Positions 21,682 through 22,058 of a stretch of DNA of 64,000 bases are shown piece by piece. The first letter of the stretch is position 1. Each line of letters opens with the position of its first letter. A model generated the notes under the pieces. It ran no database searches. It was not told the origin of the DNA and saw only the letters and a program-made list of their open reading frames with translations. Made by a program: the position numbers and the translations under genes. The stretch lies in NCBI RefSeq assembly GCF_054482525.1, contig NZ_CM137006.1. One strand, 5' to 3'.

Positions 21682-22058
21682 GAACCCCATTAAAGTATTG
21701 TTTTTACGAGTAAAGCAAGATTTAACTGTAATTGCTGGAATCACTATTCTTTATTTAGCGAAAAAATTACTTGTGAGATAAGTCAGTAAGTGCACATCAG
21801 AGTAAAAATTTCTGAAATGACTAAATTACTGCCAGCGGGGACCAACTATAAGTGAGTGAGAAAAATGAGGCAATAAAAATAACAGATTGTTATCAGTGCA
21901 TTCTTTGAGAGGGATTTAATCGCTATTCGGCGTTTATATATATTTGACTTAAGGAATGGTTTTTATAAATTAATTGTCTGAATAATGTTTCTTCATTTCC
22001 TCAAATCAAATGGCCACTGTTAGATAAACGGTGGCCATTGCCTGCTCAGGAGGTGCTA

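Follow-up and report, generated by a model that had tools for sequence, protein, structure and literature searches.

Genes and features between yhhT and apeA

On the minus strand of the stretch of DNA analysed here (the window; 64,000 nucleotides (nt)), a run of genes extends from about position 20900 to about 5893. In the PGAP annotation of Escherichia coli PCN033 and O157:H7, the products of these genes are a lipoprotein, a methyltransferase, a ketosynthase chain-length factor, an acyltransferase, two carrier proteins, an AMP-binding protein, dehydratases, a glycosyltransferase, a thioesterase, a LolA-like protein, an MMPL transporter, a DUF3261 protein, ketosynthases and a FabG-type ketoreductase. 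Judged by its sequence, this is the aryl-polyene (APE) cluster of the yhhT–acpT locus, that is, O-island 138 of E. coli O157:H7. ApeA, the product of its first gene, is a lipoprotein (Johnston et al. 2021, PMC8253772), and AcpT activates both carrier proteins (ApeE/F homologues) of the O157 cluster, according to the account of De Lay and Cronan (2006) given in PMC8253772. Aryl polyenes confer protection from oxidative stress and favour the formation of biofilms (PMC8253772). Between apeA and yhhT, the window contains an IS1 element and an AT-rich non-coding stretch, with the following features.

20513–20902, minus strand: apeA (lipoprotein), first gene of the APE cluster; from the list of open reading frames (ORFs), 129 amino acids (aa) from the conserved ATG; 'lipoprotein' in PGAP
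20896–20904, no strand: proximal copy of the target duplication, GTCTCATTA; direct repeat, in which the ATG at 20902–20900 now heads apeA
20905–21672, minus strand: IS1, 768 bp; 23-nt terminal inverted repeats and ORFs for insA (91 aa) and insB (167 aa)
21673–21681, no strand: distal copy of the target duplication, GTCTCATTA; direct repeat, with the original apeA ATG at 21679–21677 (minus strand)
21682–21838, minus strand: predicted 5′ leader of apeA, about 160 nt to the original ATG; Shine–Dalgarno sequence GGGG at 21688–21685
21826–21884, minus strand: longest spacer run (59 bp) shared without change by E. coli and Escherichia sp. E1V33, from mapped differences; centred on the promoter
21845–21873, minus strand: predicted sigma-70 promoter; −35 TTGCCT (21873–21868), 17-nt spacer, −10 TATAGT (21850–21845)
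21874–22008, minus strand: AT-rich stretch upstream of the promoter, with TTATTTTTA directly upstream of the −35 hexamer
22009–22039, minus strand: hairpin AAUGGCCACCGUU-UAUCU-AACAGUGGCCAUU followed by UGAUUUGAG; inverted repeat, putative terminator or insulator of yhhT
22059–22063, no strand: right breakpoint relative to K-12 and to E. coli lacking the cluster, from blastn and from reading the junction sequences
22059–23108, minus strand: yhhT coding sequence (AI-2E family transporter); ORF list and PGAP on the identical PCN033 sequence, stop codon at 22059–22061

The inserted element has the properties of an IS1 (768 bp, inverted repeats of about 23 bp, insA and insB, and a target duplication in the range of 8–10 bp). 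Its end sequence has tens of thousands of matches in E. coli genomes, annotated as IS1 transposase, and the copy at 20905–21672 carries the only IS1 end in the window. Both insA and insB are read in the same direction as the cluster, toward apeA. On the minus strand the 9-bp target reads TAATGAGAC, which includes the apeA ATG, and IS1 therefore sits between the Shine–Dalgarno sequence and the start codon, in the 5-nt gap that separates the two. apeA now begins in the proximal copy of the duplication, preceded by IS1 sequence where its ribosome-binding site had been, and the original ATG in the distal copy now opens an ORF of three codons that stops within IS1. PCN033, which lacks the element, is 100% identical to window positions 6896–20905 and 99.99% identical to 21673–36058; the two alignments overlap by 10 bases, which represent the empty target site (the 9-bp duplication plus one coincidental base). 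The anatomy of the interval and the insertion itself are thereby demonstrated. The region lies uninterrupted beside apeA in PCN033, O157:H7 and 567 other complete genomes. This particular IS1 junction was found in 0 of 5,426 complete E. coli genomes; it therefore represents a recent insertion, confined to this strain.

O157:H7 has the same genes at the same locus, and a 386-bp region between yhhT and the first gene is 97.2% identical; unlike O157:H7, the strain studied here carries IS1 between the ribosome-binding site and the apeA ATG. K-12 retains acpT alone. A separate, independent IS1 insertion is present in the canine urine isolate Eco_23-3511 (locus L085, NZ_CM176495.1, 1606–2760), in the same orientation but within apeA, some 170 bp away from where IS1 sits in the window; there, apeA is reduced to two pseudogene fragments.

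The stretch between the distal duplication and the yhhT stop codon, 21682–22058, is 377 bp long. Its first position is the first base past the IS1 target duplication, because the 9-bp repeat ends at 21681. The stretch has a G+C content of 34.0%, compared with 53.9% across the window, and only 0.34% of all 377-bp windows are equally AT-rich, falling in two troughs of which it is one. The sole other trough, at approximately 36926–37500 (377-bp windows at or below 36% G+C, with a minimum of 31.6% starting at 37018), lies between livJ and a livJ paralogue (78% identical, 37489–38168). ORFs internal to 21682–22058 are 20–27 aa long and half of them start at TTG; an 85-aa ORF with a GTG start (22031–22288, plus strand) merely begins in the region and runs antisense into yhhT. 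A preliminary description had reported the stretch as strongly AT-rich (the string that it quoted is 21934–21975), as lacking any ORF of 60 aa or more and as ending in a palindrome, aatggccac (22009–22017)-N13-gtggccatt (22031–22039). All three observations hold, as the 85-aa frame is the sole ORF of that size to overlap the stretch and none lies within it. The same description took the stretch to be the upstream region of the cluster before IS1 inserted, and it is indeed contiguous with apeA in PCN033, in which IS1 is absent.

Predicted promoter and leader, and the hairpin, in the syntenic interval

A scan for ApeB using one genome per species returned 80 loci, 24 of which have yhhT directly upstream of apeA and in the same orientation. 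This cross-genus synteny was demonstrated in Escherichia sp. E1V33, at least nine Citrobacter, Klebsiella indica, K. michiganensis, Lelliottia, Huaxiibacter, Enterobacter, Kosakonia, Atlantibacter, Superficieibacter and one metagenome-assembled genome (MAG). The spacer between the two genes in the 24 syntenic species is 277–708 bp long, with a G+C content of 30–41% against 50–59% in yhhT. The 708-bp spacer belongs to Citrobacter amalonaticus S646 (locus L014), which has extra sequence between the conserved promoter and apeA, partly a G+C-rich block resembling a repetitive extragenic element.

On the cluster strand, a consensus scan identified a single sigma-70-like site, TTGCCT-17-TATAGT, which has 9 of 12 consensus matches and a predicted transcription start near 21838. 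A match of 9/12 is not significant alone (4 sites in 900 bp, compared with 1.6 expected), and the scan also returned a promoter-like site on the plus strand of the stretch, TTGACT-16-TAAATT. The cluster-strand site has orthologues in related genomes: TTGATA-17-TATACT in four Citrobacter sequences, K. indica and K. michiganensis, TTGATG-17-TATACT in C. gillenii and TTGATA-17-TATAGT in C. amalonaticus S646. With the site in Escherichia sp. E1V33, it is present in a total of 10 sequences from three genera, five Citrobacter species among them, always with a spacing of 17 nt and with diverged spacers. Over eight lineages, the commonest base reaches a mean frequency of 0.85 in the −35 hexamer and 0.94 in the −10 hexamer, compared with 0.62 in the spacer and 0.53–0.58 in the flanks. 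The strict promoter pattern arises in about 1% of shuffles per sequence, and among 79 loci carrying apeA the motif occurs only in the nine closest syntenic loci. Conservation of the hexamers is thus demonstrated, and the pattern suggests that they form an active promoter. The preliminary description had spoken of a displaced promoter region, an idea strengthened by the retention of both hexamers and of their 17-nt spacing in other genera.

The strict motif was absent from Lelliottia, Enterobacter, Kosakonia and Atlantibacter and from a second (CFT073-type) APE cluster; as it is missing from these distant genera, the promoter therefore appears to be conserved only within the Escherichia–Citrobacter–Klebsiella group. 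With TTGCCT, E. coli has a weaker −35 hexamer than Citrobacter with TTGATA. Our literature search returned no paper mapping a promoter at the yhhT–acpT locus.

Within Escherichia, the promoter lies in the middle of the 59-bp invariant run. Between E. coli and Escherichia sp. E1V33, 10.7% of spacer positions differ, compared with 20.5% of the four-fold degenerate sites in apeB and 27.5% of those in yhhT. The 59-bp core is at least 98.3% identical in the 569 E. coli genomes listed as carrying it; two control segments of the same length are also close to 98% identical or better among carriers, so that this population comparison does not discriminate. Upstream of the promoter, a TTATTT motif adjoining the −35 hexamer is kept across genera. 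A perfect palindrome, ATAACA-N3-TGTTAT (21879–21893), abuts the −35 hexamer and is specific to Escherichia: O157:H7 retains both arms, E1V33 differs at one arm position, and in other genera only the promoter-proximal arm (TTATTT) is conserved. The palindrome matched no known regulator consensus. The segment 21874–22008 may hold UP-element-like sequence or regulator sites. No exact consensus sites for IHF or CRP, and no exact high-affinity H-NS site, were found in the region.

The second type of APE cluster (OkiPb01711) resembles the cluster in the window in having homologous genes in the same order, with about 70% DNA identity over apeB and apeA. It lies at another chromosomal locus, beside cdiB/cdiA (contact-dependent inhibition), and we infer that it is the CFT073 type (c1186–c1204), the E. 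coli APE cluster that has been studied experimentally. A primer published for CFT073 apeR differs from the window at one position. The upstream region of the second-type cluster (locus L004, NZ_AP042673.1, 3705–4219) comprises 515 bp of unrelated sequence with a G+C content of 37%; it lacks TTGNNN-N17-TATA[CG]T and has other promoter candidates, among them TTGACA-18-TATATT 88 nt before apeA. An upstream region shared by the two cluster types was rejected, as their similarity is confined to coding sequence and they have no promoter motif in common.

Downstream of the predicted start of transcription, the leader would be about 160 nt long in E. coli and about 200 nt in Citrobacter. In an alignment of 25 species, the apeA ATG is invariant and is preceded at a distance of 5–6 nt by GGAG (GGGG in E. 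coli). The invariant ATG and the conserved Shine–Dalgarno sequence thus place the start of apeA at 20902–20900. PGAP starts apeA at 20890, four codons later, at a codon that is ATT, GTT or ATA in most relatives, so that RefSeq has probably placed the start 12 nt too far downstream (20890–20902 in the window; 13995–14007 in the PCN033 locus, L001).

At the other end of the interval, the palindrome can be lengthened to arms of 13 nt, with one mismatch, around a loop of 5 nt, and forms a stable hairpin (−15.7 kcal/mol) that begins 19 nt past the yhhT stop codon. A perfect 9-bp inverted repeat arises in 4% of shuffles of the stretch and is alone only mildly unusual; we regard the palindrome as meaningful because it lies 19 nt past the stop codon and because relatives have hairpins at the equivalent place. 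In each of the 24 syntenic relatives, too, a hairpin lies no more than 65 nt from the end of yhhT; the sequences differ, and many are of the form CCTACC...GGTAGG followed by a T-run. The U-tract after the E. coli hairpin, UGAUUUGAG, is interrupted, several relatives having clear T-runs, and a simple terminator scan did not call the hairpin at 22009–22039. From its conserved position, it probably terminates or insulates yhhT transcription.

A probable control region and its alternatives

We put at roughly 80% the probability that the E. coli aryl-polyene cluster has its ordinary control region in the AT-rich stretch, consisting of the yhhT terminator, the promoter and the leader, and that a recent IS1 insertion has severed this region from its genes. 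Under this reading, the sigma-70 promoter TTGCCT-17-TATAGT would natively drive the APE cluster, the hairpin would end or insulate yhhT transcription ahead of the ape promoter, and an unstructured leader of about 160 nt followed by the Shine–Dalgarno sequence would carry the initiation of apeA translation.

It is possible, if on the unlikely side, that the region is mainly a nucleation site for H-NS, in which case IS1 would relieve silencing by separating the region from the genes, by analogy with bgl. A G+C content of 34% in a 54% background is what H-NS binding would call for, and AT-richness is kept in 24 of 24 syntenic species; such DNA also holds spurious promoter-like sites, of which the plus-strand TTGACT-16-TAAATT may be one. 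Higher expression at 37 °C than at lower temperature is typical of genes controlled by H-NS. The second-type (CFT073) APE cluster is expressed more at 37 °C than at 23 °C (PMC12890032). Set against this, IS1 lies downstream of the promoter here, whereas the insertions that activate bgl lie upstream; the region contains no exact copy of the high-affinity motif; and the apeA-proximal end of IS1 has no outward promoter-like site. Moreover, expression of the O-island 138 genes is measurable in laboratory cultures of EDL933 and rises 2–6 fold in an rpoS mutant (PMC2907692), observations that are compatible with a sigma-70 promoter under sigma-factor competition and argue against complete silencing. 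A literature search for H-NS at the yhhT–acpT locus found nothing. The AT-richness makes H-NS binding plausible, and a silencing role is conjecture; the two readings do not exclude each other.

That the stretch is instead a functionless AT-rich spacer, with the cluster driven from promoters inside or downstream of apeA, seems very unlikely. Apart from a few blocks, the spacer is poorly conserved across genera and varies in length (277–708 bp), and deletion of apeA leaves pigmentation intact in the CFT073 system (PMC8253772). A functionless spacer would not be expected to keep both hexamers and their spacing while the sequence between them diverges, to differ at 10.7% of positions when synonymous sites differ at 20.5% and 27.5%, or to end in an invariant Shine–Dalgarno sequence and ATG.

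Some of the same observations could be read as signs that the region encodes a product of its own, be it a small RNA, a riboswitch or other structured leader, or a small protein. The length of the predicted leader in both E. coli and Citrobacter, two short conserved blocks within it (CTTAAATAAA and the 30 nt before the ATG) and a spacer that diverges at about half the synonymous rate or less would all accommodate such a product. However, an alifold consensus of nine sequences was empty, and single-sequence z-scores ranged from −1.8 to +1.0, with no conserved leader structure found. At permissive thresholds, the best Rfam match in 21600–22150 reached 20.6 bits where the gathering score is 38; every match fell far below threshold and belonged to a eukaryotic family (snoRNA and miRNA noise). 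The internal ORFs, at 20–27 aa and half of them starting at TTG, are likewise poor candidates for a small protein, and we consider a product of this kind very improbable.

The outer edge of the control region coincides with the edge of K-12 homology. K-12 yhhT aligns up to window position 22063, and homology resumes at 5892, 20 bp upstream of acpT, which sets the left breakpoint at 5892/5893. In K-12 the breakpoints are bridged by 34 bp of unrelated filler (locus L003, 5912–5949), to which only chance 9–10-mers match in the window. Absence of the interval from K-12 is directly observed. The region is carried by 569 of the 5,426 complete E. coli genomes, at 95–100% identity, in one piece and once per genome. 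Among the matches listed from the 5,426 genomes searched, those of genomes without the cluster all start at the same base, 4 nt inside the 3′ end of yhhT, and this common right breakpoint suggests a single deletion event. The order yhhT–spacer–apeA–apeB is found in 24 other species and is therefore older than E. coli, so that most E. coli, K-12 included, carry a deletion; this agrees with the interpretation of AcpT in the literature as 'orphaned'. All the evidence is consistent with a single deletion in the ancestry of most E. coli.

The preliminary description had allowed that the stretch might mark the right-hand junction of an island, or else be conserved in K-12 as ordinary sequence 3′ of yhhT. 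Alignment with K-12 disposes of the second possibility, as K-12 lacks the whole region, palindrome included, and puts the junction at the yhhT stop codon. The position proposed for the junction was therefore right, and the direction of change was not, given the ancestral synteny and the deletion in K-12. The idea that the stretch is the edge of a horizontally acquired island, with the palindrome as part of an integration site or an insertion scar, draws on the presence of the region in only 569 of 5,426 E. coli genomes, on the exact break of K-12 homology at the yhhT stop codon and on the unrelated filler, but it is barely tenable in the face of a gene order shared by eight genera from Citrobacter and Klebsiella to Superficieibacter, the different hairpins that relatives have where the palindrome follows yhhT, the persistence at the far junction in K-12 of acpT, whose product activates the carrier proteins of the cluster, and the lack of the usual marks of a genomic-island junction (an integrase or tRNA gene, sought in the PGAP annotation within 14 kb on either side; flanking direct repeats, sought at the two junctions read; and absence of the sequence from relatives at the site).

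Probable uncoupling of the cluster by IS1

When IS1 transposed into the gap upstream of the apeA ATG, it duplicated 9 bp in which that start codon lies. As a result, the ribosome-binding site, the predicted leader and the predicted promoter are now 777 bp away from apeA, and transcripts from the native promoter must traverse IS1 before reaching the cluster. A promoter scan of IS1 found a promoter-like site in the left inverted repeat (21665–21638) and no outward-facing one at the apeA-proximal end. A new outward promoter from IS1 driving apeA was rejected, the site in the left inverted repeat being the sole promoter-like site.

Insertions of IS1 are strongly polar, and polar IS1 insertions are known in gal and lac; at bgl, IS1 and IS5 insertions activate the operon from positions upstream of the promoter. 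The insertion described here resembles these cases in placing IS1 in an AT-rich regulatory region with a 9-bp duplication. Unlike the bgl insertions, it lies downstream of the promoter and within the translation-initiation region, and polar uncoupling is therefore likelier than activation. By analogy, reduced expression of an otherwise intact cluster is likely, and IS1 would bring it about through polarity together with loss of the ribosome-binding site. It is a more speculative and rather improbable proposition that IS1 at the 5′ end of the APE cluster represents a recurrent, selected off-switch or rewiring of the pigment in extraintestinal or animal-associated E. coli, as the independent insertion in apeA of the canine isolate might suggest. 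On that view the cluster studied here, which is intact (100% identical to PCN033 over 14 kb) yet parted from its promoter, leader and ribosome-binding site, would depend on read-through from the IS1 promoter.

In kind, the finding is unsurprising: a standard intergenic regulatory region has been hit by a common insertion sequence. Aryl-polyene clusters are among the most widespread families of bacterial biosynthetic gene clusters, and their regulation in E. coli is poorly described. Our analysis supplies a concrete candidate promoter for the yhhT–acpT version of the APE cluster, corrects the probable start codon of apeA and shows that K-12 carries a deletion whose right edge falls at the stop codon of yhhT. 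The strain studied here, for its part, offers a naturally occurring allele with the cluster complete but cut off from its control region.
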